Position numbers and translations under genes: made by a program. Source: Nitrososphaeria archaeon (GTDB lineage: Archaea > Thermoproteota > Nitrososphaeria > JACIWG01). From it: 64,000 nucleotides of DNA. The notes under the pieces are model-generated. The model made no database searches. It saw only the letters and a program-made list of their open reading frames with translations, and was not told the DNA's origin. The stretch covers positions 4,928-68,927 of the forward strand of contig JBEKIG010000013.1 of NCBI GenBank assembly GCA_050011875.1, written 5' to 3'. Below, one piece after another: positions 4,354-57,233 of the stretch; position 1 is the first letter of the stretch, and each line of letters starts with the position of its first letter.

Positions 4354-4773
4354 GCAAGACACACCTTCCCAACATTTTTTTTGATATATTATAACGCATA
4401 GGACATTTGAGTTAGTTTATTCCTAGCCTTTTCTGTTGAAGTTCTTTAACTATCTTCTCTATCTCTGAAACCTTAGAAATCTCCTTTTCAACTTCACTTA
4501 AGCGGTTTTTATGCTGATATTCTCATTTCTTAAACTAATATTTTCAGTAGCATGATATTTGATATCATATATGACCCTATAATTGTAATTGTCATAACCA
4601 ACCTCGAACAAAGTCTTAATAAAACAGAAATCTCAGGAACTTCAAGACGCTTTAAAAGATTTGGAAGAAAACTCCATTCGTAGTGTGTTTAGAAATCTCT
4701 CTAAGGATAATGCTCTCTAATCAGAATGATTTTTAAGGCGCCAATACCAAGAAGGTTCACCGCAGTTTGGCAT

Positions 4774-5109
4774 TTAACGTTGTCTGTAGATACGTTTTGA
4801 TCTTTTTTGTCGACTTTTCTGTTGTACTTTAGTCCGAGGCTTTGGGATCTTCTTCTTAAGAGTCGGAGTTAATTCAAGAAGCTGTTGAAGGCTGATCTCC
4901 TGACCTGTCAGTGAGATAGCATATGCATCTTTGGCTTCGACCACTAATAAGGCCCAGGGGGTGACCATGGCTCCGAAAAGGCCCCTTTTCTCTCCCCCTG
5001 TCAGATTGTAGACTAAAACTACAGGGTAGAGAATTCTTCGCCCTATCTTGAGCTCTTCACCTATCATTATTTTCGTTTGATAGCCTATTTCAAACCCCTT
5101 ATTCTTCAT
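4774..5109 (-). CDS. divergent GerW/YtfJ-like protein with a strongly basic C-terminal tail
   Basis: IGEELKIGRRILYPVVLVYNLTGGE...GAMVTPWALLVVE follows the GerW pattern but lacks the Gly-rich loop. The start overlaps the stop of 5106-5678 (ATGA). Confidence 0.45.
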   Translation of the reverse strand: MKNKGFEIGYQTKIMIGEELKIGRRILYPVVLVYNLTGGEKRGLFGAMVTPWALLVVEAKDAYAISLTGQEISLQQLLELTPTLKKKIPKPRTKVQQKSRQKRSKRIYRQR

Positions 5110-5678
5110 GTTCTCATCTTTCTAATTTCTCTGAACAGTCTTCTAAAGGGCTTCTTAGTGTAGGCTACTAAAAAGGCTAGGACAATACGTAGCAATCTCA
5201 CATTTGCCTTGGCTAATATTTCGCCATCGAACCTTGTTTCTTGGAAGTCCGGCTCCAATGTAAAAGATAACCTCGAATCAACATCCAGTATAGAAAATAG
5301 AGCCCACATGTAACCATATAAAACCGCTGTGTCAGCTGGGCTGTCTAAACCGACCTTCAGGTGACAGGAGAGCATCTTAAATGTAATGGATTTTCGTACA
5401 GCATTAAATAAATGAGTTAGTTGTGGAAATGAATCCCGTAAAGCTGAAATAACATCCAAAATTTTGGGTCTCTCAAACTTTGCGGCCACCTTCTTCCTTT
5501 CCGCAGTAGGCACAATCCTATGAATCATTGTAAGACGTAACCACTTAACTTTAAAGTCGCCCTTTATAGAAGGACCTTTTTTAGAGAATTGTACGATAAC
5601 CTGTAATGGTATAAGTAGAAAGCCTGCTATCAGTAGAAAAAAAATAAGTAGGATGACGGCGAGAACTTCGTAGATCAA
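5106..5678 (-). CDS. DUF2953 (YtfI-like) N-terminally anchored protein
   Basis: 190 aa with an N-terminal TM helix. It is placed directly after a GerW/YtfJ gene, as in the Bacillus ytfI-ytfJ pair. The family call comes from gene order and architecture. Confidence 0.5.
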   Translation of the reverse strand: MIYEVLAVILLIFFLLIAGFLLIPLQVIVQFSKKGPSIKGDFKVKWLRLTMIHRIVPTAERKKVAAKFERPKILDVISALRDSFPQLTHLFNAVRKSITFKMLSCHLKVGLDSPADTAVLYGYMWALFSILDVDSRLSFTLEPDFQETRFDGEILAKANVRLLRIVLAFLVAYTKKPFRRLFREIRKMRT

Positions 5679-5698
5679 ATAGACCTATCTTTAATTCT

Positions 5699-6082
5699 TC
5701 ACTCTTTCTTATGTTCCTCTTCTTTTTTGCTTTCTTTCATTTTATCCATCATTGAAGTTGCGATTTCGCCTATCATCTTTCCGATCGGCCCTGGAGTTGA
5801 AATGTTCATGACTTTTATTCCTTCAGGTCCTGGGACTCCCTTGAATATGACTATTATTGAGGTGGGCACAACTCCTGTTCCTCCTCCTCCGCCACTTCCT
5901 TTACCACCTTCACCACGTTCCCCTTTTCCTTCACCCGATCCTGCGCCAAATCCAACTCCGAACTTCTTTAATGGAATAATTATCTTGTCCTCGAATTCCA
6001 TTGGTTCGCCAACTACATTTTTTGTAGCTAACAGTTTAAGAAGTTCTTCGACCATCGTCTTTATGTTTTCTTCTGCGCTCAT
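5699..6082 (-). CDS. GerW/YtfJ family protein
   Basis: VGEPMEFEDKIIIPLKKFGVGFGAGSGEGKG...GGGGGTGVVPTSIIVI is the canonical GerW (Spore_YtfJ) pattern. Confidence 0.75.
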   Translation of the reverse strand: MSAEENIKTMVEELLKLLATKNVVGEPMEFEDKIIIPLKKFGVGFGAGSGEGKGERGEGGKGSGGGGGTGVVPTSIIVIFKGVPGPEGIKVMNISTPGPIGKMIGEIATSMMDKMKESKKEEEHKKE

Positions 6083-7816: not shown

Positions 7817-8473
7817 ATGACTCTAGAATCAAATAAAACCTTAGGCGGCATAGGTGCAATACTGTTGTTCATCGGACTTGTACCGTATGGTGAACCATTT
7901 ACAGCAATAATTGCACTTGTGGGTTTGATACTGGTTTTAGTTGCTCTAGATGGTTTTGCAAACATCTACAAGGAAAGAGGAATATTCAACAATTCCATAT
8001 ACGGAATAATCGCAGGCATAGTGGGCGCAGTAATTGCAGGCGTTGTGGCTGTTGTTGTAGTTTTAACCACGCTAAAAAATTTCCTATACCAAATCTTTCC
8101 AGGCTGGAATGGCGACTGGTTAAAGCTTCCAGGATTAACCCCGAACACTTCGAACATAACCGTAAGTGCTGTCTTGCCTTTACTAGAAGGACTACTTTTA
8201 GCATTTGTTGTCCTGTGGATTTTCATAATAATTGTAGCTTTCTTTGTCAGACGATCACTAAACATTCTTTCAGCAAAAACAGGCGTAGGTTTATTCTCAA
8301 CTGCAGCACTGCTGCTATTCATTGGCGCAATTCTAACAATAATTCTCTTAGGCATCCTTCTAATGTGGATCGCTGTAATATTAATTGCAATTGCCTTTTT
8401 CCAAATAAAACCGCAACCAGAACAGCCTGTAACAACAATGACACCTCAACCCTCAACGCCGACAACGGTGTAA
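7817..8473 (+). CDS. DUF996-like polytopic membrane protein
   Basis: The N-terminus ...NKTLGGIGAILLFIG... and a 5-6 TM layout are typical of archaeal DUF996 proteins. The C-terminal tail is Pro/Thr-rich. Confidence 0.6.
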   Translation: MTLESNKTLGGIGAILLFIGLVPYGEPFTAIIALVGLILVLVALDGFANIYKERGIFNNSIYGIIAGIVGAVIAGVVAVVVVLTTLKNFLYQIFPGWNGDWLKLPGLTPNTSNITVSAVLPLLEGLLLAFVVLWIFIIIVAFFVRRSLNILSAKTGVGLFSTAALLLFIGAILTIILLGILLMWIAVILIAIAFFQIKPQPEQPVTTMTPQPSTPTTV

Positions 8474-8643: not shown

Positions 8644-9417
8644 TTATTGTGTACCAACTACGTTGACCGTTGTCTTTATCGTAAGGTTTTCGCCTGTAAC
8701 TCCGATTATTAGTGTGTACGTTCCAGGTGTTATGTTTACGTTAAAATGTGTGTCTGTTGCTGCTTGCCAGTAGAGAGTACCTATCTGTCCCTGAAGACCA
8801 GGCTGAGGCGTTTGGGTCGAGTGCCCAAGCTGATACGCTAACCCCTTGACCTGCTGGTTTTGGGAATTAAAAACATCCAACTCCACGTACGAGGCGTTGA
8901 CCTCCTGTGCCCCTGTCAGATTGAAGCGTACCCCAAGGTAACCGTTAGGATTCACAGACGTACCTGAAAGTGTAACCTCCAGTTTCAGCCCTGAGGTTTC
9001 GTTGGTCAGCGTTGGACCGAGGAACTCGGCGGGTGGCGAAGTTGTAGTGGTCGTCGAAGTAGTCGTGGATGAAGGGGTTGGAGTTGAGCCGTAAACATAG
9101 GGCAGAACCATTACGGTTGCTATCACGAGAACCGCCAGTACTATTACGACCGTGAGAATTATTGCATTTTTTGAGTTTTTCTTGTTACCAATAAGAACAA
9201 ACTCGTAAGCGGACAGGGAGCCGAAGGTTAGAGTAAGCACTACAAAAGTAGCCAACAACACGTTTAGATTTATAGGGGACATAATGCTTGGGTTCTTTAT
9301 ACTTGGGTTCTTTAGGTGTTGAATTAGAGAGAATTCAGAGAATGATATGGAGTCGAATATTATCGTCAACACTGCAAAGGTCACCAACAACATGTTTCTT
9401 GTCTTCGAAGATGGCAT
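8644..9417 (-). CDS. membrane-anchored surface protein with Thr-rich linker and C-terminal beta-rich domain
   Basis: 257 aa with three N-terminal hydrophobic segments, a TPTPSSTTTSTTTTTSPP linker and a beta-strand-like C-terminal half. The start lies 4 nt after the stop of regulator 9422-9844, suggesting co-transcription. It contains a 15-nt tandem duplication (9287-9316, IKNPSIKNPS). Confidence 0.6.
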   Translation of the reverse strand: MPSSKTRNMLLVTFAVLTIIFDSISFSEFSLIQHLKNPSIKNPSIMSPINLNVLLATFVVLTLTFGSLSAYEFVLIGNKKNSKNAIILTVVIVLAVLVIATVMVLPYVYGSTPTPSSTTTSTTTTTSPPAEFLGPTLTNETSGLKLEVTLSGTSVNPNGYLGVRFNLTGAQEVNASYVELDVFNSQNQQVKGLAYQLGHSTQTPQPGLQGQIGTLYWQAATDTHFNVNITPGTYTLIIGVTGENLTIKTTVNVVGTQ

Positions 9418-9421
9418 TATC

Positions 9422-9844
9422 TTACATCTTCTTCAGCGCTCTAATCACTTCATACAGTGATGTTGCAACCCCTACCAAGCACACCGCTAAAGCGAAACCA
9501 TATGTGGACGTTATCTGAGGCGGCCTCAGATAGGTTAACAGAATCAGAAATGCTACAGCGAAGAACGCCATGTACGCCGTCTGGAATGGTATAAGCGTCC
9601 TCCTCACCCTGACTATGTTCTCAAAAACAACCTTATCCACCACATAGCCTTTGTCCTGTTCTCTGATGAGCCCAGCCTCGAGAAGCTTGTTGACGTGATA
9701 TGATGCAACGGACGAGGAGCCGAACCCAAGGCCCTCCTGCACGCCACTGATACCTACAGGCTTTCCCTCCTTGAATATGAAACGGTAAACTCTGAGAGTA
9801 GTACCCCTCAAAACCTTTGCTTCATCCTCTTCCTTCGCAGCCAA
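9422..9844 (-). CDS. membrane-tethered winged-helix transcription regulator (wHTH plus 2 C-terminal TM helices), paralog 1
   Basis: 140 aa. The N-terminal ~75 aa look like a wHTH (YRFIFKEGKPVGISGVQEGLGFGSSSVASYHVNKLLEAGLIRE). The C-terminal part has two hydrophobic helices. Apparent TTG start. By hand count, 98 of 140 residues are identical to 51082-51504. Confidence 0.75.
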   Translation of the reverse strand: MAAKEEDEAKVLRGTTLRVYRFIFKEGKPVGISGVQEGLGFGSSSVASYHVNKLLEAGLIREQDKGYVVDKVVFENIVRVRRTLIPFQTAYMAFFAVAFLILLTYLRPPQITSTYGFALAVCLVGVATSLYEVIRALKKM

Positions 9845-9891
9845 CAGTCTTCAACCTTATGATAAACGATAACATATTAAGTCTTACCAAA

Positions 9892-9926
9892 TTCTAAAAT
9901 TAGAAGAACGCTTTCTAAAATTAGAA
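9892..9926. promoter_or_regulatory. two exact copies of the inverted-repeat box TTCTAAAATTAGAA (putative operator of the wHTH-TM regulator)
   Basis: The boxes are at 9892-9905 and 9913-9926, 21 nt apart start to start. Half-sites TTCTAA and TTAGAA are reverse complements separated by 2 nt. The same box occurs at 51553-51566. Confidence 0.55.
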
Positions 9927-9958
9927 AACTGCGCTTTCCCGTCTTTCTATTAATAGCG

Positions 9959-9965
9959 CTATATC
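9959..9965 (+). promoter_or_regulatory. TATA-like element CTATATC upstream of the MSEYK gene
   Basis: It is centred about 34 nt upstream of the ATG at 9996. An identical heptamer sits at the same distance before the paralog (51599-51605). Confidence 0.35.
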
Positions 9966-9995
9966 CAGGTTTATGCGTACTGGCTGACGAGCACA

Positions 9996-10829
9996 ATGTC
10001 GGAATATAAAAGGCAGATAGTTGTAGGAGTTTTCGTAGCTGCTGTAATAGCGTTGGTTCTAGCAGGAGGAGCAATCTACCTCCTTCCACTGCAACCCATG
10101 CGGACGACATCCACAACACTTATCACTCCTACAACTACAGCTACAGGCACAGCTACAACAACTGCTACAGGAACTTACAGTAGTACATCTACGTTTGGTG
10201 GTTCACCTACTACTACACCGTCAACTTCGTCTGGTACGACGATTACTCTCGGTCCCCCTTATACATCTGTTACAACTATTACTACTGCAGGTACGACTAC
10301 ACCTATTACAATTACGTTCACTCCTACGATTACATCTATTACATCTACAGCTGGAACAGCTACTACAAGTGGTTCTACGACTATAACGTCCGGACCTACT
10401 GTAACTGTTACTGTGACAGAAATATTAGGTACTGTGGTATCGCCTGGAACTACTGAAACAGTTACTGTGACAGAACAAGTTGGCACTGCGACTGAGACCG
10501 TGACAACAACTGAGACACAAGGTTTAACGACAACTGTAACATCAACCACAACAGTAACAAGTGTAGGAGGGCTTGAAATAACAAACGCCTATGCTAATAG
10601 CACGACTCAGGTGGTTGTAAGCGTCATGAACACAGGGAGCACAGACCAGACCATTACAGGCATACTCGTAAACGGAAAATCTCTTTCAAGCGTGAACGGT
10701 GGCACTTCAAACCCAAGCCTACCTATCAAGGTGGCAGCGAATGCATCGCTAACCATCAACCTAACCTTCAGCTCTCCACTATCATCGAACACAATATATT
10801 TCGTAACAATTCAAACCAGCACAAGTTGA
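9996..10829 (+). CDS. signal-anchored Thr-rich surface protein (MSEYK family), paralog 1
   Basis: MSEYKRQIVVGVFVAAVIALVLAGGAIYLLPLQP anchor, about 150 aa of T/S/G/P linker, and a conserved C-terminal domain ...MNTGSTDQTITGILVNGKSLSSVNGGTSNPSLPI...LTFSSPL. Confidence 0.7.
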   Translation: MSEYKRQIVVGVFVAAVIALVLAGGAIYLLPLQPMRTTSTTLITPTTTATGTATTTATGTYSSTSTFGGSPTTTPSTSSGTTITLGPPYTSVTTITTAGTTTPITITFTPTITSITSTAGTATTSGSTTITSGPTVTVTVTEILGTVVSPGTTETVTVTEQVGTATETVTTTETQGLTTTVTSTTTVTSVGGLEITNAYANSTTQVVVSVMNTGSTDQTITGILVNGKSLSSVNGGTSNPSLPIKVAANASLTINLTFSSPLSSNTIYFVTIQTSTS

Positions 10830-11758
10830 TCCAAAGGAGTAATGATACGATCAAACAATCGGTCGATAAAAGCTCCTATAAGATAGCTTTTGTCGCCCTT
10901 ATAGTTACAGCTGCAGTTGTTGGAAGTACTATCTACTCTAACCCAACATTATTCAAAAGTTCAACAATCACTTCAACAATGACTACAACGACAACGAAAA
11001 CTCAGTATATAACTACCGATAAGAATGTGTATAATGTTGGTGATACTTGTCATTGGACGGCAACAGGTCTGATTTCAGGCACAACCTATTCGATTTACTG
11101 GTCTGAATATTTTTCAAACTCCCAAAGTTACTACTCTCTTAGCACTTGGAATGCTACCTCATCTTCGATGATAGGTACTTTTACTGTTACAAACGACATG
11201 CAAGGAGGCGGAGATCTAATATTAAACGAAGGTTATGGAGCTTCTCCAGACGCAAACATCGTTATTTGGATTAACTCGCTATCATCAACAACTTCTATAT
11301 CTACCATTCCGATAACAACTACAACAGGAACAACTACTTCTAATATTACTTCCGGAACCAATACTACGACAACCGTAATTTCAGTGCTGAATGTGTCCAG
11401 CTTAATCTCATCCGATGAATCGTTAAACGCTGTGATGGAGTTCCAGGGATGGAACGCTACCCAAATGGCATCCTATGGAGTTTATACACAGCTTAGATAC
11501 CTGAAAGAAGAAAATGGATGGCTCAACATATACACGGTCGACCCTAATACGACTAAAATATTGAGTTTGGAAGCGAGCGAATCTCTTCAGATTCCTGACC
11601 CCACAGTAAAACTGCCGGGGTACTTTTGGTTCATAGACATTAACGCAGATGTAAAAACAGTTGCACCAGGCAACTTTCCAGAGGCAGGTACATATTACGA
11701 CTTCTGGGTAGACGCCGTTAACGCCACAGTAGTGTACTCAGAAGGGCCGGTCCCGTAG
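10826..11758 (+). CDS. signal-anchored secreted two-domain protein, translationally coupled to 9996-10829
   Basis: The TTG start overlaps the upstream stop by 4 nt. One N-terminal TM helix is followed by two globular regions separated by a Thr-rich linker. No family recognised. Confidence 0.6.
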   Translation: MIQRSNDTIKQSVDKSSYKIAFVALIVTAAVVGSTIYSNPTLFKSSTITSTMTTTTTKTQYITTDKNVYNVGDTCHWTATGLISGTTYSIYWSEYFSNSQSYYSLSTWNATSSSMIGTFTVTNDMQGGGDLILNEGYGASPDANIVIWINSLSSTTSISTIPITTTTGTTTSNITSGTNTTTTVISVLNVSSLISSDESLNAVMEFQGWNATQMASYGVYTQLRYLKEENGWLNIYTVDPNTTKILSLEASESLQIPDPTVKLPGYFWFIDINADVKTVAPGNFPEAGTYYDFWVDAVNATVVYSEGPVP

Positions 11759-12145: not shown

Positions 12146-12610
12146 TTGAATAATCAAACATTAAGGAGTGCCAGAACTTATGCTTTCATCGGGTTCATAT
12201 TTTACCTGCTAGCTACCGCAGCTGGTTTCATAGGCTTATTCGTCATTGGCTTATTTATCTACGTACCTATAGCCTTGCCCTACATCTTGATAGCTATAGT
12301 CTTCTTGCTGCTGTCCATCCCAGGAATAATACTGACGATTTTTGCATGGATGACGGTGAAAAATATTGAAGTGGGGAAATATGTTCAAGCGCGCACCTAC
12401 AGCCTAATACTCGGAATAATAGGTCTATTCTTCGGCGCCATAATCGGCGGCATCTTCTTCCTTCTCGCCTACGCAAACCTAGGTGAATCGATGACACCTC
12501 CGATGGCGGTCCAACCTTTACCTCAGAGATTCTGCGTAAACTGCGGCAGAGCTGTAGTAGCCCCTAACACAAAATATTGCGCCTACTGTGGAAAAGAGCT
12601 GCCTCCATAG
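12146..12610 (+). CDS. four-TM membrane protein with C-terminal CxxC...CxxC zinc ribbon
   Basis: 154 aa. The hydrophobic core is followed by FCVNCGRAVVAPNTKYCAYCGKELPP. The start codon is non-ATG (TTG) in the ORF track. Confidence 0.6.
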   Translation: MNNQTLRSARTYAFIGFIFYLLATAAGFIGLFVIGLFIYVPIALPYILIAIVFLLLSIPGIILTIFAWMTVKNIEVGKYVQARTYSLILGIIGLFFGAIIGGIFFLLAYANLGESMTPPMAVQPLPQRFCVNCGRAVVAPNTKYCAYCGKELPP

Positions 12611-12912: not shown

Positions 12913-13413
12913 TCAAGGATTGCCAACATTCCGCCGTGATGACATCCTCTTGGCGATCCACCTAATGAGTAGCATGGACGCTCCCATGAACAGCGAAATA
13001 AAAGATCCCTGCCCTATGGAGTAGCCAAGAGACTGGCCAAGGTAAAGGTATGAAACCACTCCGAAAGAAATGAAGGCAGATATCATCCAGATCAGGATGA
13101 ACACGTTGGAGATGGAGTTGGCGACCCCAGTCTTCCTCTGACCCGCTTGGTCTCTAGCAGCTGCACTCGTCTCTATGATTCGGACCGCCACCAAGGCTTC
13201 CTTCCCTTCATCGGAAAGCCGATAGTTCCCTTCAGGATCGAGGACAATCAACCCTTCCAGTTTCTTCAGGTGGTAGTCCAGGTTGCCGCTGCTTGAGATT
13301 CCCAGCTTATTCTTCAGCTTTCCAAAGCTCAGGGGAGTGGACTCAAGAACTTCCAGAACCCTGATTCGCGTAGGATGAGCGATCTTCTCAAAGAGCTCGG
13401 CTGAGCTGGACAT
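12913..13413 (-). CDS. ArsR-type wHTH regulator fused to C-terminal transmembrane helices
   Basis: IAHPTRIRVLEVLESTPLSFGKLKNKLGISSSGNLDYHLKKLEGLIVL is a classic ArsR/SmtB-like HTH. The C-terminal ~60 aa form 2-3 hydrophobic helices. Confidence 0.75.
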   Translation of the reverse strand: MSSSAELFEKIAHPTRIRVLEVLESTPLSFGKLKNKLGISSSGNLDYHLKKLEGLIVLDPEGNYRLSDEGKEALVAVRIIETSAAARDQAGQRKTGVANSISNVFILIWMISAFISFGVVSYLYLGQSLGYSIGQGSFISLFMGASMLLIRWIAKRMSSRRNVGNP

Positions 13414-50452: not shown

Positions 50453-50929
50453 ATGGATAAGATAAAGATCCTTTTCCTATGCACCCATAACTCAGCGCGA
50501 TCCCAAATGGCTGAAGGATTTCTTAGACACTTCTATGGAGAAAGGTATGAAGCATTCAGCGCAGGCTCAAAACCGACACGTGTCCATCCTCTTGCCATAA
50601 AGGTGATGTCTGAAGTGGGGATAGACATTTCGAAACATACGTCTAAGAGCATCGAAGAGTTCCGGAACAAGGACATTGACGTAGTTGTAACCGTGTGCCG
50701 TAGCAGTGCAAAGGAGGTCTGTCCGTTTTGCTCTTCACCGATACTTGGAAGTAGACCGGAGATAGTAGCCTCGACCGTGCCAAGCGCTCGGAAGTATATA
50801 GAACACGGTTTCAGCGACCCTTCTGAAGTTTATGGAAGTGATGAGGAAAGGACTGAAGCCTTCAGACGCGTGAGGGATGAAATAGCTAGTTGGATTAAAG
50901 ATACTTTTGCGGACCTCGGCGATCTTTAA
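50453..50929 (+). CDS. arsC: arsenate reductase, LMW-PTPase (thioredoxin-coupled) family
   Basis: ILFLCTHNSARSQMAEG (CX5R P-loop), ...AFSAGSKP... and ...VVVTVC... 158 aa. Confidence 0.85.
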   Translation: MDKIKILFLCTHNSARSQMAEGFLRHFYGERYEAFSAGSKPTRVHPLAIKVMSEVGIDISKHTSKSIEEFRNKDIDVVVTVCRSSAKEVCPFCSSPILGSRPEIVASTVPSARKYIEHGFSDPSEVYGSDEERTEAFRRVRDEIASWIKDTFADLGDL

Positions 50930-51081: not shown

Positions 51082-51504
51082 CTATACTTTCCTTAACGCT
51101 CTTGTAACTTCGTATAATGAGGTCGCAAGTCCGACAAAGATCACCGTTAAAGAGAAGGCATAGGTGGACGTTATTTCAGGTGGTCTCAGGTAGGTCAGCA
51201 GGATCAGGAATGCCAGTAAGAAGAATATGGCGTACGTGGTCTGTAAGGGTATAAGCGTCCTTCTCACCCTGATCACATTTTCGAACATCACCCTGTCTAC
51301 GACGTAGCCTTCATCCTGTTGCCTGATGAGGCCCGCGTCAAGGAGCTTGCTGATATGGTATGATGCGAGTGAGGATGTGCTAAATCCGAGGCCCCGTTGC
51401 ACGTCATGGACGCCAATGGGCTTCCCCTCCTTGAACATAAAGCGATAGACCTTGAGAGTAGTGCCCTTCAATACGTCTGCTTCAGCCTTTTCCGCTGTAC
51501 TCAA
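51082..51504 (-). CDS. membrane-tethered winged-helix transcription regulator (wHTH plus 2 C-terminal TM helices), paralog 2
   Basis: 140 aa, collinear with 9422-9844 (98 of 140 identical by hand count). Apparent TTG start, as in paralog 1. Confidence 0.75.
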   Translation of the reverse strand: MSTAEKAEADVLKGTTLKVYRFMFKEGKPIGVHDVQRGLGFSTSSLASYHISKLLDAGLIRQQDEGYVVDRVMFENVIRVRRTLIPLQTTYAIFFLLAFLILLTYLRPPEITSTYAFSLTVIFVGLATSLYEVTRALRKV

Positions 51505-51552
51505 AGTCTTTCCAACATTGATGGACCAGCATTCAATTTAAACCTTACTCCA

Positions 51553-51598
51553 TTCTAAAATTAGAACACAGTCTTCCATCATCAATCTAAAATTAGTA
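51553..51598. promoter_or_regulatory. inverted-repeat boxes TTCTAAAATTAGAA (51553-51566) and ATCTAAAATTAGTA (51585-51598)
   Basis: The first box is identical to the two boxes at 9892-9926. It lies 48 nt from the regulator start codon (47 nt in the paralogous locus). The second box abuts the CTATATC TATA-like element. Confidence 0.55.
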
Positions 51599-51605
51599 CT
51601 ATATC
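51599..51605 (+). promoter_or_regulatory. TATA-like element CTATATC upstream of the MSEYK gene (paralog 2)
   Basis: It is centred about 35 nt upstream of the ATG at 51637. The same heptamer and spacing occur at 9959-9965. Confidence 0.35.
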
Positions 51606-51636: not shown

Positions 51637-52314
51637 ATGTCAGAATATAAGAAGCAGATCGCTGCAGGAGCTTTGACGGCTGTCGTGATAGCGTTAATTT
51701 TGGCAGGTGGAGCAAGCTATCTTTTCCCACTTCAGCCCACGCAGACGACCTCCACAATAATTAACCATTCCTCTGCAGCTGCAGCCACAGCGTCTACCAC
51801 TAAGGCTACAAGCGCTGCTATTACATCTATACCTCAGACAACGTCGTCAGGAACTACCTTCACGACGTCTACGACATATTTAGGCACTACGACAACGATA
51901 TATTTACCTCCGACCATGACTCTACCCACTAATAATGGCACTACGATAATTACAAACGGCACTATGACATATACAATAACTCCTCCTATCACCACGGTGA
52001 CTACGACAATTGGACCGATTGTAACTGTAACCGTGACCCAAAACCTCATAAAAGATATTGAGATAACATACGTGAACTTCAACGCCAGCATCCCAACTCA
52101 TGTGTTCGTAGGCGTCAAGAACGCCGGCACCACGGACCAGACCGTCACAGAAGTACTCGTAAACGGAATACCGTTATCAAGCGTGAACGGAGGTACATCA
52201 AATCCAAGCCTGCCCATTACAATAGCAGCAGGTAGATCACAGGAGATCACCCTAACCTTCAGCTCGCCACTGCCATCAGGAACATACTTCATAACAATTC
52301 TCCCCGGTGATTGA
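51637..52314 (+). CDS. signal-anchored Thr-rich surface protein (MSEYK family), paralog 2
   Basis: MSEYKKQIAAGALTAVVIALILAGGASYLFPLQP..., a Thr-rich linker, and a conserved C-terminal domain ...KNAGTTDQTVTEVLVNGIPLSSVNGGTSNPSLPI...LTFSSPL. Confidence 0.7.
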   Translation: MSEYKKQIAAGALTAVVIALILAGGASYLFPLQPTQTTSTIINHSSAAAATASTTKATSAAITSIPQTTSSGTTFTTSTTYLGTTTTIYLPPTMTLPTNNGTTIITNGTMTYTITPPITTVTTTIGPIVTVTVTQNLIKDIEITYVNFNASIPTHVFVGVKNAGTTDQTVTEVLVNGIPLSSVNGGTSNPSLPITIAAGRSQEITLTFSSPLPSGTYFITILPGD

Positions 52315-53242
52315 TACGCATCAGAATCTATTGGAAGGAGCCGTGCCGAAGGCTCAGGTTGTTTTGTTATTGGCCATACTTTTGGTTGGAGCAGTCGGCG
52401 CCTACTATGTTGTACAGGAAGAACTGCCAAAGAATAGTAACCCTTTGACTACTACTTCGACCTCGGGCACATCAACGTCCGCTCCGGTAGACGCAGGCCC
52501 GCTAACCGTAGTTTCAGTTAGTCTTCTTCGGCCCTATAACCCGGGTGGACCGACAATTGAAGTCATCCTGCAGAACAAGGCAAACAACCCAGTGGTTAGC
52601 CTTCAAACGGTATTGTCATTATCGGGACGCAACTACACGTACGTTTTCGACGACGTTTCTTCAAGCAATCCGCTGTTGACCAATCAGGACGCATCTCAGA
52701 CAGCCACTCTGATCGGTCCTGCCGGATTTGAAACAAATCAAACGTACCCGATGGAGATACGAGGCACTCTGCAAAATGGATCCTTGTTCGATTACGTAAC
52801 TCCTGTGACAATAGCCCAATACTCCAATCAGCTCGTGGCGTCCGGAGGAAACGGCAATCTCCAACTTACCATGGTCCTCGGAAAAACCGTGTACAGTTTA
52901 GGCGAACCTGTTAACCTAACTTTGACCATCACCAACATCAGCAATCAGACAATAAACTTTATGCACTCAGGATTGGATTTTGATTTTCGAGTTTACAACG
53001 GCACAAACAACGTCGTGTACCAGTGGTCAAATTTCAGAGGCATCGCTCAATTCATAATGATCGTGCCGCTTCACGCCGGAGAGAGCAGGTCGGCCAACTT
53101 CACTTGGCTGCAGACATGCAATTTCAACGCCTCAGTTGAAGGAGACCCAGTCTCACCAGGGACCTACAACATAATTGGCCAAACTGGCTCAGTGTACGGT
53201 TTACAGACGACGCCGATACAACTCACAATCGTCAACCCTTAG
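52307..53242 (+). CDS. signal-anchored secreted protein with C-terminal BsuPI-like (proteinase-inhibitor) beta-sandwich
   Basis: The GTG start overlaps the upstream stop by 8 nt. C-terminus: VNLTLTITNISNQTINFMHSGLDFDFRVYNGTNNVVYQWSNFRGIAQFIMIVPLHAGESRSANFTW. It follows the BsuPI pattern (sG..yDF.V.d..g..vw.wS......q.....l..GE.....w). Confidence 0.55.
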   Translation: MIDTHQNLLEGAVPKAQVVLLLAILLVGAVGAYYVVQEELPKNSNPLTTTSTSGTSTSAPVDAGPLTVVSVSLLRPYNPGGPTIEVILQNKANNPVVSLQTVLSLSGRNYTYVFDDVSSSNPLLTNQDASQTATLIGPAGFETNQTYPMEIRGTLQNGSLFDYVTPVTIAQYSNQLVASGGNGNLQLTMVLGKTVYSLGEPVNLTLTITNISNQTINFMHSGLDFDFRVYNGTNNVVYQWSNFRGIAQFIMIVPLHAGESRSANFTWLQTCNFNASVEGDPVSPGTYNIIGQTGSVYGLQTTPIQLTIVNP

Positions 53243-53756: not shown

Positions 53757-56700
53757 CTATGATGTCTTTGGATGGTCGATTCGGACCCGGTCATGCTTAC
53801 CTGCTTTCCGCCTCGGCAATACAACCCTCCAAAGGATTACGATTACCGCTAAGATAACCGCTAAGATAATAACTATCAAAATGGACGTGTAAACCCAGTT
53901 TATCGAGAAGCTTGCCTGCACGCTCTCAGCAGAGTTCACCACAACACTAACTTCAGTTTCGCTTGAAGACGTTGCACCAGACCAGCCGTCAAACTTGAAC
54001 AGGAAAAACGCAGGACTAGCTGCAAGCTGAACAGTCGAACCCAAAGGCACAAACAGCGTCCTATTACTCGCACCACCCACCTTACCAGCAAGCGAGGCAG
54101 AGCTGTAGGAAACACTTCCGAAACTCGAAGAAACAACAGAGAGACCAGGATAGAACGCTGCGCTTTCAACGATAGGATCCTTGACCGTAACAGTGAACGG
54201 ATTACTCACCCCCCCATACGAGCCGACCCCTGAACCGTTCCATAACTCGAACTGCCAACCACCATTTGAAGCAGCAGAAAGCTGAACCTGCTCACTGGAA
54301 TTAAACCAATCCGTCAAAGGAGACACGAAACCACCCTGCTGGCTGTTGGAAAGGACCTTAACATAATACTGGTGGTAGTAGAAAGGAGACAAGACGACGG
54401 CCGAGCTCACCGAACCTGTGGTTGCCTGCGCAAGGACCGACCATCTCTCGTTCGAAGAAGCATAAGCAACGCTTGCAAAACTAAACGTACTGCCCGAGTC
54501 TGCCCAAGCTGTCCCCTGCGTGACACCAATCAGTGAAGTCGACGGCGATCCAAGCGAAGAGAAGTTCAACTCCAAAGAACCTGGGTTCCCCCCGCCGGAT
54601 ACGCTGTAGCTATAAACAATGGTGTACTGGTGATAGTAGACAAGGGTCATTGAAACAGCTGCGTTCACACTGCCGGAGCTAGAGCTATTGGTGTACCAAC
54701 GCTCAGATGAGCCAGACCCCTGAAGAGGATTCGGCAAGCTGAATGAAGTGCCTGCGTCAAGCCAATTGGAACTTAGGGTCGCGTTTATCGGAAAAGCCGC
54801 TGACACTCCGAAAGCTGTCCCCGACAACAACGGAGAAGTAGGATTCCCGCCACCATTGATGACATATCCTACTGAGATGTCGAATTGGTGGTAGTATTGG
54901 AAGGTCGCGGTGGTAGGTCCCGAGACAGCCCCTGCGTCGGTCTGAGACGTAATCCACCTTTCAGATGAATTAGAGCTGGAGAGAGGGTTAGTGACCGACC
55001 AAGATGAACCATAATCAAACCAGTAGGCTGTAGGTATGCTCGTTATGGTAGGCGAAAACGCCACACCATTCTGCAAACCTGACAACAGCGGAACGGCCGG
55101 CGAACCACCTCCAGACACAGAATACGCCAGAGTCCAAGCTACCTGAAAGTAATACGGAACAACTACCACAGACCCAGAAACAGTTCCCGACGTTTCGTTA
55201 GTGGCCATCCACCTTGTGTTTGAATTCGACCCTGATAGCAAGCCTGTGAACGAATAGGATGAACTCGCGTCTGTCCAGTCAGTGAAATTCGCCACCCCTT
55301 GGGATTGTGATCCGAACTTGGTGTAGGAGACGGTCGGAGCCGTGTAGCCCGACTGATTAGAGTTCATAATGTTGAAGCCAAACAGAACGTAGTACTGGTC
55401 ATAGTATGTGAAAAGAACGGACTGGGCGGCGGAAACGGTTCCTGAGGTCACATCCTGAGTGTACCATCTCTGCACGCTACTCGACCTCTGTAAGGGGTTT
55501 GAAACAGACCAGAGCTGTCCGACGTCGGACCAATAGGCCGTGGGTGAGCCGGAAAGGCTAACAGCAGCCGCCGAGCCGAACTGGGTTAGGGCAAGGCTGG
55601 GCGCAGTAGGACCTCTTCCCCCCACTGTCGTATAGCCGGAAGTCAACCTGTACTGGTGGTAGTATGTCGCAGAAAACAACGTACTAGAGTTAACCATGCC
55701 AGTCGGAGACTTAGTGGCCCACCGTTCGTTTACGTACGATCCGGGCAACGGATTCTGAAAGGAATACAATGAGCCGGCGTCCACGAAGGCCAAGAAACCG
55801 GGCGTAATGGATACAGATGACCCGAATTCGCTGACATTCATGCTTGGCTGTGAGTAACCGCTGCCACCGTTTGCGACAGCATAGAGGAAGGATACGCGAA
55901 ACTGGTGGAAATATACGAAGTTCAACGTTGTACCGTTCGTGGGAGCAGTGCCGCTAGTTTTATTTTGTGTGTCCCAGATCTCTATCGAAGTTGAGCCCTG
56001 TAACAGGCCGTTCACGCTCCACGGAGATCCGCTGTCCATGTAGTAGGTGGTAGAATTAGTGGAAAGCTGGATGATGTGCTGAATCCCGCCGGAATAGTAG
56101 ATGAAGAATGGTGGAGAATATCCACTTCCACCACCTTGAACTGAATAATTTACGTTAACTGTGGCAGGACTATATCCTGTGATAAACAGATACGAGTCAG
56201 AAGCCTCCGTGGCGTTATGGGATGATAGGTACTGCAATGTTTTCGGAACCGTGTAGACGACAGGACCACTCGTGGAAGCCACGAACAACGTTTGGCCAGT
56301 GCTCGGCACCCATTCCTCCATCCACATCCAGGCGGAGGATTTTGCGAAGTCGTTTTCCCAATAGGTGACATTTGCCTCTTCTCCGTAATAGGCGGAGGAG
56401 TGCCACCATTCCGTCATAAGCCCGGTGAAGAAACCGTTACTGTTTTCTGGCGATGAAGCTAAGCCCACGAAAACGGAAGAGCCCTCCTGGTTGAACATCT
56501 TTACGGCCCCTGCCCCCGTGTTATAATCATATGCTTGCATCACGACGTTGCCGCCAGAAAAGAAAAGGTTAAGGAGGACTGTATCCCCCTGTTTCACGGT
56601 CCCTGAGAAGGACGATAGTCCGACTCCGCTTGCTGGGTAGATTGAATTACCACTTGGGTCAAAGACTTCGTAATTCATGCTAAAGCCCGATGCGTAGCCG

Positions 56701-57233
56701 CCAACCAGATTAGGCCAATGCCAAGAAAGGCCCACCTGATACCAATACCCCGTATCAGTAAGGCCATCCAGATCGTAGCCCGGTCCGTATCCGTTGCTGT
56801 CCGACTGAGCCACAGCGGTGACGTTGTAGGCCATACTTGTGAAGTTCTGGGTGAAAGTTAACCCCAGCTGCTCGTCGTAAATCGCGGATGGTTGATTCTC
56901 AACCGGGTAATCCTGGTTGTTTACAGTAGACAGCTCCAAACCAGCCAATCGATGGCCTTGCGATTGACCCGCCGGAGAATCAGAGCTGAAAGATTCTGGT
57001 ACGTTTTGACGACACAACGAGCAAGAGTAAGATCCATCCGAACCCAGTCCAGTTGAAATGTTAACACCACCTGAAGAGGGATTAATGACGGAGGAAGTTG
57101 CTCCAAAAACGCCAACATGAGGCGCTGTCCAACCAAGAGCGACAAGCATTACAATTAACAGAATGCAGAAACCTAATCCCTTGGTAATCCTTCGAACTGG
57201 GCAACCATGAATCTTAATCAAAGCCAGTTTCAA
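53757..57233 (-). CDS. 1158-aa C-terminally anchored, repeat-rich surface protein with an N-terminal concanavalin-like (thermopsin/eqolisin-like?) domain
   Basis: N-terminal signal or anchor, a ~190-aa domain (aa ~125-310), seven tandem ~84-86-aa modules, two InlB-B-repeat-like modules (...GGWQFELWNGSG..., ...FKFDGWSGATS...), then a C-terminal TM helix and basic tail. Visibly G+C-rich. Start codon uncertain (TTG in the track). Confidence 0.85.
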   Translation of the reverse strand: MKLALIKIHGCPVRRITKGLGFCILLIVMLVALGWTAPHVGVFGATSSVINPSSGGVNISTGLGSDGSYSCSLCRQNVPESFSSDSPAGQSQGHRLAGLELSTVNNQDYPVENQPSAIYDEQLGLTFTQNFTSMAYNVTAVAQSDSNGYGPGYDLDGLTDTGYWYQVGLSWHWPNLVGGYASGFSMNYEVFDPSGNSIYPASGVGLSSFSGTVKQGDTVLLNLFFSGGNVVMQAYDYNTGAGAVKMFNQEGSSVFVGLASSPENSNGFFTGLMTEWWHSSAYYGEEANVTYWENDFAKSSAWMWMEEWVPSTGQTLFVASTSGPVVYTVPKTLQYLSSHNATEASDSYLFITGYSPATVNVNYSVQGGGSGYSPPFFIYYSGGIQHIIQLSTNSTTYYMDSGSPWSVNGLLQGSTSIEIWDTQNKTSGTAPTNGTTLNFVYFHQFRVSFLYAVANGGSGYSQPSMNVSEFGSSVSITPGFLAFVDAGSLYSFQNPLPGSYVNERWATKSPTGMVNSSTLFSATYYHQYRLTSGYTTVGGRGPTAPSLALTQFGSAAAVSLSGSPTAYWSDVGQLWSVSNPLQRSSSVQRWYTQDVTSGTVSAAQSVLFTYYDQYYVLFGFNIMNSNQSGYTAPTVSYTKFGSQSQGVANFTDWTDASSSYSFTGLLSGSNSNTRWMATNETSGTVSGSVVVVPYYFQVAWTLAYSVSGGGSPAVPLLSGLQNGVAFSPTITSIPTAYWFDYGSSWSVTNPLSSSNSSERWITSQTDAGAVSGPTTATFQYYHQFDISVGYVINGGGNPTSPLLSGTAFGVSAAFPINATLSSNWLDAGTSFSLPNPLQGSGSSERWYTNSSSSGSVNAAVSMTLVYYHQYTIVYSYSVSGGGNPGSLELNFSSLGSPSTSLIGVTQGTAWADSGSTFSFASVAYASSNERWSVLAQATTGSVSSAVVLSPFYYHQYYVKVLSNSQQGGFVSPLTDWFNSSEQVQLSAASNGGWQFELWNGSGVGSYGGVSNPFTVTVKDPIVESAAFYPGLSVVSSSFGSVSYSSASLAGKVGGASNRTLFVPLGSTVQLAASPAFFLFKFDGWSGATSSSETEVSVVVNSAESVQASFSINWVYTSILIVIILAVILAVIVILWRVVLPRRKAGKHDRVRIDHPKTS
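54381..56168 (-). repeat. seven tandem ~84-86-aa protein modules inside 53757-57233
   Basis: The modules begin near aa 359, 440, 524, 610, 694, 780 and 866. Each has YY(H/F/D)Q(Y/F)...GG(G/S)...P...W.D.GS..S...PL......(E/Q/T)RW......G.V. Confidence 0.8.

Follow-up and report, generated by a model that had tools for sequence, protein, structure and literature searches.

In this study, we analyzed a 64,000-nucleotide (nt) stretch of contig JBEKIG010000013.1 (assembly GCA_050011875.1) from a Nitrososphaeria archaeon, hereafter the window, and found in it two copies of a compact gene module composed of a small putative regulator, a divergent gene for a stalked surface protein (the partner, or MSEYK, gene) and palindromic boxes between the two. 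Structure prediction indicated that the 140-amino-acid (aa) regulator is an ArsR-like winged helix running through one long helix into a hairpin of two transmembrane (TM) helices, and sequence comparison across genomes indicated that the conserved unit is the regulator together with an adjacent gene bearing a characteristic N-terminal anchor and the boxes. On balance, we considered it somewhat likely from the sequences that the module is a minimal transmembrane transcription regulator and that its TM hairpin probably reads the anchor helix of the partner. The initial annotation of this DNA had described a membrane-bound winged helix-turn-helix (wHTH) protein and a divergent MSEYK gene as a self-contained unit of regulator, operator and surface protein, and this core reading was supported by the conserved pairing and by the boxes. 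The unit recurs in uncultivated archaea of soil and peat, and it appears to connect transcription with the cell envelope in a manner not previously described.

In module A, regulator A (9422..9844, − strand; 140 aa, TTG start) contains a wHTH at residues ~12–70, a juxtamembrane helix at 71–86, TM1 at 87–104 and TM2 at 113–136, all as predicted. Partner protein A (9996..10829, + strand; 277 aa) consists of a predicted N-in anchor (residues 1–31, nt 9996–10088), a Thr/Ser-rich stalk of ~150 aa and a C-terminal domain (C-domain; nt ~10548–10826, + strand) modeled as a 7-strand β-sandwich. The second module reported 41 kb away was present: regulator B (51082..51504, − strand; 140 aa) is 70% identical to regulator A over 140 aa, and partner protein B (51637..52314, + strand; 225 aa from ATG 51637) has an anchor and a C-domain of the same type as partner A, the anchors being 67% and the C-domains 60% identical. 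The MSEYK gene of module B had been started at TTG 51607, but a hidden Markov model (HMM) of the anchor favored ATG 51637 as the likelier start. Across the window, the anchor HMM matched just the two genes beside the two regulators. It was also observed that TTG start codons are unusually common in the window.

The loci examined comprised 5 genomic loci, 10 places from exact-protein look-ups and 80 metagenomic loci (222 relatives detected), and the locus searches ran on alignments narrower than an over-diverse 29-sequence alignment. The anchor HMM was built from the 42 N-terminal residues of the partner proteins and was scanned in six frames. The pairing was counted in the 84 loci in which 150 bp or more precede the regulator. 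A divergent adjacent anchor gene was found in 65 loci, with start-to-start distances of 97–242 bp, and an anchor gene lay elsewhere in the locus in 9 further cases. Conserved linkage to an MSEYK-like gene, which had been proposed as a check on the reading, was therefore kept in at least 74 of the 84 loci, and a reciprocal search from the anchor agreed. In eight loci, the anchor gene immediately precedes the regulator gene in the same orientation, 19–60 bp away, and forms an apparent operon with it; most of the 9 further cases have this gene order. On inspection of the 10 loci scored as having none, L076 and L080 proved to be co-directional, and L060 and L062 carried a variant anchor. These sequence comparisons showed that the adjacency of regulator and anchor gene is near-obligate. 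A subgroup of regulators with ~62% identity to regulator A was observed without an anchor gene, in L004 (5977-7953) and L015; the orphan regulator of L004 keeps a palindromic box (TTCTATTGTTAGAA) upstream of its own gene, and the gene after it encodes a secreted protein of 478 aa.

The reciprocal search used the back-translated pattern MSEYK[RK]QI against 185,579 species genomes and returned 15 loci. Nine of these were non-target loci (8 bacterial and 1 from Methanobacteriaceae) without the anchor. The remaining six archaeal loci contained seven true anchor genes, five of which had a divergent regulator 100–150 bp away; the other two were one extra copy with its own boxes and one orphan with a box and a TATA element. 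The named hosts include Candidatus Gagatemarchaeum stordalenia, and the host lineage, a deeply rooted one within the Nitrososphaerota, inhabits acid soils and peat and does not oxidise ammonia (PMC10640624).

The initial annotation had merely postulated an operator, and we identified candidate boxes with the consensus TnCTA-N4/5-TAGnA in both intergenic regions. In module A, box A1 (9892..9905, TTCTAAAATTAGAA; arms TTCTAA/TTAGAA) lies 11 nt upstream of a TATA-like element (9873..9880, − strand, TTAATATG) that we tentatively assigned to the regulator A promoter, ~28 nt upstream of the TTG start. Box A2 (9913..9926, again TTCTAAAATTAGAA) follows at 21 bp from A1. The degenerate box A3 (9945..9958, TTCTATTAATAGCG) keeps the CTA-N4-TAG core, lies 32 bp from A2 and abuts the TATA-like CTATAT of the MSEYK-A promoter (9959..9964, + strand), which begins 37 nt upstream of ATG 9996. 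In module B, box B1 (51553..51566, TTCTAAAATTAGAA) lies 10 nt upstream of a TATA-like element (51535..51542, − strand, TTTAAATT) that was likewise tentatively assigned to the regulator B promoter. Box B2 (51585..51598, ATCTAAAATTAGTA), 32 bp from B1, abuts the CTATATC of the MSEYK-B promoter (51599..51605, + strand), which begins 38 nt upstream of ATG 51637. All boxes are given without strand. With up to two mismatches allowed, the 14-bp box occurred only in the two module intergenic regions of the 64 kb, and none of 100 shuffles reached its count. Because the first box also lies 10–11 nt upstream of the regulator TATA-like element, both divergent promoters appear to be box-associated in the window.

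The boxes were also a property of the family. The family count used the motif CTA-N3-6-TAG, which was present in 50 of 55 intergenic regions, with 85 boxes against 7.8 expected and a maximum of 15 in 200 shuffles. The arms differ by lineage (TTCTAA/TTAGAA, TCCTA/TAGGA and TGCTA/TAGCA) and covary, since 27 of 51 unique boxes were complementary, with T:A, C:G and G:C pairs, against 15.7 expected; this covariation suggested a site for a symmetric dimer. The proximal box begins 40–58 nt upstream of the partner start codon, and 38 of the 50 proximal boxes abut an ACTATAT-like TATA element. The centre-to-centre spacing of neighboring boxes was 21–22 bp (9 cases) or 31–32 bp (20 cases), and no other spacing was observed. 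Seven of the eight co-directional loci have a box 43–48 nt upstream of the anchor gene, and the remote family member L091 keeps both a box and a TATA element. Among 53 ORFs (open reading frames) of the window, TATA-like motifs show a sharp peak 30–39 nt ahead of the start codons, with 12 motifs in a 5-nt bin and a background of 1.1. This peak indicated that the box-adjacent element sits in the canonical TATA position of this genome, and that most mRNAs are probably leaderless or have very short leaders. Since the proximal box abuts the TATA element on the side of the B recognition element (BRE), it would overlap the presumed BRE position of the partner promoter. Two observations led us to reject the possibility that the box is a mere core-promoter element: the arms covary, and the copies repeated at 21 or 32 bp are not each followed by a TATA element. 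Extra boxes were observed in L013, ~60 nt upstream of a gene with another, MSS-type anchor (4640-5254), and in L001, upstream of a second MSEYK gene (from 6303) and of another anchored protein (5298-5858); they suggested that the regulon in some genomes exceeds the adjacent gene.

The regulator itself was then assigned by domain searches and structure prediction. The Pfam profile HTH_20 scored 27.7 bits on regulator A (cut-off 27) and 20.9 bits on regulator B, HTH_5 scored 12 bits (cut-off 22), and the NCBIfam profile HTH_metalloreg scored 13–20 bits (cut-off 55); Trans_reg_C, the OmpR-type domain, gave no Pfam match even at E ≤ 1. An AlphaFold2 model was built on the 29-sequence alignment, with a predicted local distance difference test (pLDDT) score of 82. 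It showed a winged helix (helices 15–26, 32–39 and 44–56; wing 60–69), one unbroken helix 71–104 comprising the juxtamembrane segment and TM1, an 8-residue loop and a second helix 113–139. In regulator A, the juxtamembrane helix (71–86) bears the pattern FEN.IR.RR..IP, and the TM1–TM2 loop reads LRPPQITS. The charge distribution, with RVRR before TM1 and RALKK after TM2, placed the wHTH in the cytoplasm. Foldseek searches of the PDB matched the wHTH only (template-modeling scores, TM-scores, of 0.4–0.5), to ArsR 6j05 (0.45–0.48), IclR 1mkm, CggR–DNA 8r3g/7oyk and MarR. These searches returned no solved structure resembling the whole regulator, and a regulator profile run against PDB sequences gave no match below E = 0.1. 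A transmembrane transcription regulator has been defined as a protein combining a predicted DNA-binding domain with at least one predicted TM region (Demey et al. 2023; PMC10269533), and the HTH_20 match together with the hydrophobic helices 87–104 and 113–136 predicts that the regulator is one. The HTH_20 match and the model supported the initial description of a membrane-inserted 140-aa wHTH protein with two C-terminal TM helices. Equally, the statement that the module proteins belong to no named family was borne out, as nothing characterized matched beyond the borderline ArsR-type HTH.

The regulator family was found to be large. An exhaustive profile search yielded 394 clusters (50% identity) at E ≤ 1e-10, a number that rose to 780 at E ≤ 1e-3. 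Of the best 150 matches, nearly all were 135–185 aa long and aligned end to end. These counts, lengths and full-length matches indicated a sizeable, homogeneous family without a sensor domain, whose members carry only the database names ArsR-family or hypothetical protein. In the family alignment, the recognition helix S..A.YH..KL..AGL (S45, A47, Y49, H50, K53 and L54), which is of ArsR type, is near-invariant and forms the best-conserved part of the protein. The residues R79, R82 and P86 of the juxtamembrane helix are invariant, and the conserved non-hydrophobic positions of the hairpin are R107, P108, Y115, F117, S129, Y131 and E132. No metal or metalloid site was found: residues 1–86 contain no Cys and a single His (His50), which lies within the recognition helix.

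It could be argued that the protein is not a transcription factor, its wHTH being a protein-interaction module of a chaperone, an assembly factor or a receptor while another factor binds the boxes. Winged helices also make protein contacts, and Foldseek did return the wHTH domains of RuvB and of O-methyltransferases; moreover, the HTH_20 score is borderline, and sharing an operon, as regulator and partner gene appear to do in some loci, is typical of proteins that interact physically. However, the best-conserved part of the regulator is precisely its ArsR-type recognition-helix signature, and the box half-sites are conserved family-wide in step with this helix, including in the remote L091. 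Anchor-less regulators keep a box upstream of their own gene, indicating autoregulation, and the palindrome with its integral-turn phasing fits a membrane-tethered dimer. We therefore regarded this reading as highly improbable.

The partner proteins share their anchor. Its signature is M-S/A-E-Y/F-K/R-R/K-Q/E-I-x-x-G11-x-x-x-A15-x-x-x-A19-x-x-L22 ... [YL][FL]P31, with E3, Y4, G11, A15, A19, L22 and P31 as conserved residues; its helix has a small-xxx-small face, and its short cytoplasmic tail contains an acidic residue. Behind the anchor come a Thr/Ser-rich stalk and then ectodomains that fell into at least 19 unrelated BLAST clusters among 59 partner proteins. The initial annotation had described partner A as an anchor, a stalk of ~150 aa and a conserved C-domain of ~85 aa. 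The anchor and the stalk were found as described, but the C-domain is one of at least 19 types, and it is the anchor that is conserved instead. Pfam searches of 40 partner proteins gave four matches, each Ig/Fn3-like. The AlphaFold2 model of the window C-domain was the 7-strand β-sandwich (pLDDT 84; predicted template-modeling score 0.76), and its top Foldseek matches in the PDB were FlaF/FlaG (5tug, 6pbk and 5tuh) and the Aap pilin 8q30, all of them marginal fold matches (E 8e-4 to 2e-2; TM-score ~0.5).

The divergence of the anchor tracks that of the regulator TM hairpin (rho 0.48; partial 0.43 given the wHTH), whereas the partial correlation with the wHTH was 0.07 when the TM region was controlled. 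A constraint at the DNA level was judged an unlikely cause of the anchor conservation, because the MSEYK codons show synonymous third-position differences between modules A and B; many start codons also differ, which was counted against such a constraint. Database searches returned three matches for the MSEYK C-domain and one for the 42-aa anchor profile, a profile low in statistical power. The partner proteins are thus nearly missing from protein databases, probably because gene callers pick the antisense strand of the Thr-rich stalk. In L006 (4158-4907, − strand) and L009 (4195-4893, − strand), the public gene calls are Val/Glu-rich antisense ORFs in place of a Thr-rich partner gene.

A class III signal peptide consists of a charged leader ending in [KR][GA], followed by a hydrophobic helix. 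The partner N-terminus lacks one, with no G or A ahead of the hydrophobic stretch, and no gene for a prepilin peptidase, an assembly ATPase, an archaellum or a pilus was found within ~8 kb of either module. On these two grounds, we rejected the idea that the module is part of a pilus or archaellum operon.

In the mechanism that we propose, the C-terminal hairpin would seat the regulator in the membrane with the winged helix at the cytoplasmic face, and a symmetric dimer would bind the TnCTA-N4/5-TAGnA boxes in the 100–190 bp that separate its own gene from the partner gene. The dimer would be parallel, with its two-fold axis normal to the membrane, matching a palindrome that lies parallel to the membrane. 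Because the box spacing equals exactly two or three helical turns, the bound dimers would lie on one face of the DNA, as one flat membrane requires. Since boxes are placed at both core promoters, one protein may control both divergent promoters at the assembly of the pre-initiation complex. We leaned towards a partner promoter that is repressed when the BRE-overlapping box is occupied, in an ArsR-type manner; repression was favored by the overlap with the presumed BRE and by the ArsR ancestry. With lower confidence, the absence of a sensor domain points to the TM hairpin as the input of the regulator, and the hairpin might contact the partner anchor through the cytoplasmic MSEYKRQ tail and the TM helix face G11xxxA15xxxA19. 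The anchor helix is the best candidate signal, as it is kept before 19 ectodomains, occurs only with the regulator or the box, and remains adjacent in two gene orders. The level of transcription would then depend on how much partner protein is in the membrane or what state it is in, an inventory feedback like that of PilS–PilA, or else on a ligand of the ectodomain outside the cell.

Several points weigh against this mechanism. We infer DNA binding, membrane insertion and the contact between anchor and hairpin from sequence analysis and structure prediction, and HTH_20 matched at threshold for regulator A and below threshold for regulator B. Taken alone, the position of the proximal box over the presumed BRE is compatible with both repression and activation. 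The mirror-tree correlation is confounded, as both segments are hydrophobic and subject to composition drift and the pairs are phylogenetically related, so that it can only be suggestive. The remote member L091 has a partner of other topology, and L093 and L094 have no anchored partner. The anchor-less regulators of L004 and L015 retain every conserved residue of the hairpin, from which it follows that hairpin conservation needs no adjacent partner.

This last observation, like the existence of remote members without an MSEYK-type partner, would be expected if the hairpin were instead a sensor of the membrane state. The boxes would be the same, but the hairpin would sense lipids, membrane potential or envelope stress, perhaps with cleavage near the hairpin; the partner would be a mere target, and its anchor would serve insertion, oligomerisation or retention. 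Such sensing has been proposed for ArnR and ArnR1, whose TM helices are regarded as the input domain and in which loss of glycerol dialkyl glycerol tetraether (GDGT) cyclisation triggers C-terminal cleavage (PMC12107092). However, membrane-state sensing leaves unexplained why one anchor stands before 19 unrelated ectodomains, including a cytoplasmic E3 that runs against the positive-inside rule, and why this anchor occurs almost exclusively beside the regulator or the box. It also does not account for an adjacency that survived the change of gene order to an apparent operon, nor for an anchor divergence that tracks the hairpin and not the wHTH. We considered membrane-state sensing unlikely, though worth keeping in view.

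The hairpin might also be a passive tether that only localises the regulator and its locus to the membrane, which could favor transertion, while the signal enters elsewhere, for example as a wHTH ligand or by proteolysis. Transmembrane transcription regulators are widespread, and for many of them no input has been identified (PMC10269533); the target here encodes a membrane protein, and the helical phasing of the boxes fits tethering by itself. A passive tether, however, would not need near-invariant non-hydrophobic positions in the hairpin (the seven residues from R107 to E132 given above). The cytoplasmic wHTH of ~70 residues, with no Cys and a single His, offers no obvious ligand or metal site, and the conservation of the anchor would be left unexplained. 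We judged passive tethering to be improbable.

If, as we propose, the hairpin reads the anchor helix, the module could be a split device. The regulator would supply DNA binding and the hairpin, the partner would supply a swappable ectodomain, a glycosylatable stalk and a docking anchor helix, and the signal, be it the abundance of the partner or a ligand bound outside the cell, would reach the DNA solely by helix–helix contacts within the membrane. We put this forward tentatively, as a possibility that falls short of being probable. If it is true, one genome may hold several orthogonal pairs with different ectodomains, and the module, as the smallest transmembrane signal-to-transcription system known, would follow the logic of RsgI/SigI and PilS/PilA in archaea and in one step.

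The nearest known system is ArnR, as the initial annotation had suggested. ArnR has an HTH domain and two C-terminal TM helices and acts through two inverted-repeat boxes, TCGAC-N5-GTCGA, both of which are needed (PMC6396743). ArnR and ArnR1 of Sulfolobus acidocaldarius, activators of archaellum and pili genes, share with the present regulators an archaeal origin, an N-terminal wHTH and two C-terminal TM helices. In both cases, a pair of short inverted-repeat boxes, variable or AT-rich at the centre, stands upstream of the core promoter (their binding being a prediction here), and the target protein has an N-terminal TM helix followed by a β-sandwich domain (as modeled for the window). The suggestion was upheld on this architecture of HTH, two C-terminal TM helices and paired inverted-repeat boxes. 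However, ArnR carries a HAMP-like and a sensor domain, whereas here a 16-residue juxtamembrane helix connects the wing (residue 69) to TM1 (residue 87). The box sequence differs as well, and the ArnR fragment pflaB41 with both boxes spans −43 to −84, whereas here the proximal box abuts the TATA element. The window target is not an archaellin and has no archaellum or pilus genes nearby, and no conserved target anchor has been described for ArnR. Given the absence of its HAMP and sensor domains, ArnR was treated as an architectural analogue and not as a demonstrated relative.

CadC is modulated by LysP through TM contacts. In ToxR–ToxS, TcpP–TcpH and CadC–LysP, as proposed here, a membrane-held wHTH protein binds DNA while tethered, and an adjacently encoded or membrane-resident partner modulates it; reviews of the class are PMC10269533 and PMC11323476. 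Their wHTH is of the OmpR type and is combined with one TM helix and a large periplasmic sensor domain, in contrast to the ArsR-like wHTH, two-TM hairpin and 8-residue outer loop of the present family, in which the partner would also be the transcriptional target. According to a passage in PMC6058289 citing Kilmury and Burrows 2016, PilS senses PilA directly through TM segments. PilS–PilA of Pseudomonas aeruginosa resembles the module in that there is no large external domain, the N-terminal hydrophobic helix of a target with a variable C-domain is read, and autoregulation results (as would apply here). However, PilS is a six-TM histidine kinase that acts via PilR and sigma-54, whereas sensing and DNA binding would here be combined in one 140-aa protein.

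The ArsR/SmtB repressors share the wHTH fold, the recognition-helix pattern, dimers on imperfect palindromes that overlap the promoter, and autoregulation, the binding being presumed in our case. Unlike them, the regulator has no metal or metalloid site, and a juxtamembrane helix and TM hairpin replace the C-terminal dimerisation helix. On the side of the partner, FlaF/FlaG (ArlF/ArlG) and archaeal type IV pilins likewise have an N-terminal TM helix followed by a β-sandwich, with a conserved N-terminus and variable C-domains. They differ in that the partner carries a Thr/Ser stalk of ~150 aa between helix and domain, has neither the class III motif nor nearby assembly genes, and belongs to a family whose other members bear unrelated ectodomains.

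No description of the regulator family, the anchor or the box was found in the literature searched. The signal input and DNA access of membrane-tethered factors are poorly understood, and ArnR is the only archaeal one to have been studied. The present family reduces the question to its bare essentials, namely a wHTH, one connecting helix and a TM hairpin; its operator phasing of two or three turns fits the geometry expected of membrane-tethered dimers, and the candidate signal is encoded alongside. It may serve as a small system, accessible by gene synthesis, for studying signal transfer within the membrane, the binding of DNA at its surface and regulation at the archaeal BRE/TATA. It also provides a first handle on the control of fast-diversifying stalked surface proteins in acid-soil and peat Nitrososphaerota that are abundant yet uncultivated (Gagatemarchaeaceae and relatives).

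Further genes are coupled to the modules. In module A, the partner gene is followed by a gene for a second anchored protein (10826..11758, + strand; 310 aa, TTG start), and the regulator gene by a composite-looking gene (8644..9417, − strand; 257 aa). On re-reading the sequence, the coordinates originally given for all four module A ORFs matched exactly. The 4-nt gap claimed between regulator A and 8644-9417 reads TAA stop, GATA, ATG, and the 4-nt overlap claimed for 10826-11758 is a TTG start over the TGA stop of the MSEYK-A gene. In module B, a coupled anchored protein with a BsuPI-like domain in Pfam (52307..53242, + strand; GTG start) overlaps the preceding gene by 8 nt. The claimed recurrence of the architecture held for the regulator and MSEYK pair but not for its surroundings, since the third genes 10826-11758 and 52307-53242 have no relationship to each other and no gene is coupled downstream of regulator B. 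Similarly, the translational coupling of extra proteins was seen as described, but these proteins are lineage-specific add-ons, and all three genes (10826-11758, 52307-53242 and 8644-9417) were rejected as parts of the conserved unit. A second anchored protein after the anchor gene occurs only in the clade of the window and a few others. A gene 4 nt past the regulator is confined to the closest relatives and is missing from 50 of 66 informative loci.

The 8644-9417 protein contains two tandem remnants of an MSSxKxRN..LLVTFVVLT.IFGSLS.YEF anchor (residues 1–30 and 46–75), followed by a third TM helix (84–108), a Thr linker and a C-domain of the type of L001 8355-8993. In L002 and L013, MSS-type anchors head separate genes after the regulator, with the same 4-nt gap. 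By its sequence, the 8644-9417 protein looks like a fusion. Ectodomain shuffling was also observed, as the C-domain of the 10826-11758 protein (VLNVSSLISSDESLNAVMEFQGWNATQMASY) recurs in L013 4640-5254 behind the other, MSS-type anchor.

A second type of membrane-tethered wHTH protein is encoded 3 kb from module A (12913-13413, − strand; 166 aa), with two TM helices and matches to DUF7347 (56 bits) and HTH_20. It was rejected as a member of the same family, because the relationship is confined to the wHTH (hhalign 92%, 54 columns). This gene is syntenic in L002 (975-1475), and another DUF7347 gene lies near the L009 module (from 9771, cut off by the end of the locus). Several families of membrane-tethered regulators seem to be present in these archaea.

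Two further functional assignments of the modules were tried and rejected. A defence or phage module was rejected because PADLOC and PHROGs gave just weak matches, to the wHTH of Csa3-like proteins. A low-molecular-weight phosphotyrosine phosphatase/ArsC-like gene (50453-50929, + strand) neighbors module B, but an ArsR–ArsC arsenic module was rejected, as this gene is convergent with regulator B and syntenic in the close relative L003 alone, and the regulator has no Cys site. Given this confined synteny, the gene is probably unrelated to the module.

The gene directly after module B, which is also syntenic in L003, encodes a 1158-aa protein (53757-57233, − strand) with a signal at its N-terminus and a TM anchor at its C-terminus. 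Repeats of about 90 aa, with recurrent YYHQY and GGG.P motifs, occur within this protein, which gave no Pfam match and, with Tandem Repeats Finder, no DNA-level tandem repeat. On the metagenomic contig of L006, fragments of a group II intron reverse transcriptase/maturase (1915-2802; RVT_1, GIIM) lie ~2.5 kb from the module. Module A is flanked by genes for small polytopic membrane proteins (7817-8473 and 12146-12610, both + strand), one of which is a DUF996 protein with a Thr/Pro-rich tail, while the other has four TM helices and ends in a zinc ribbon; the part of the genome around module A is rich in envelope proteins.

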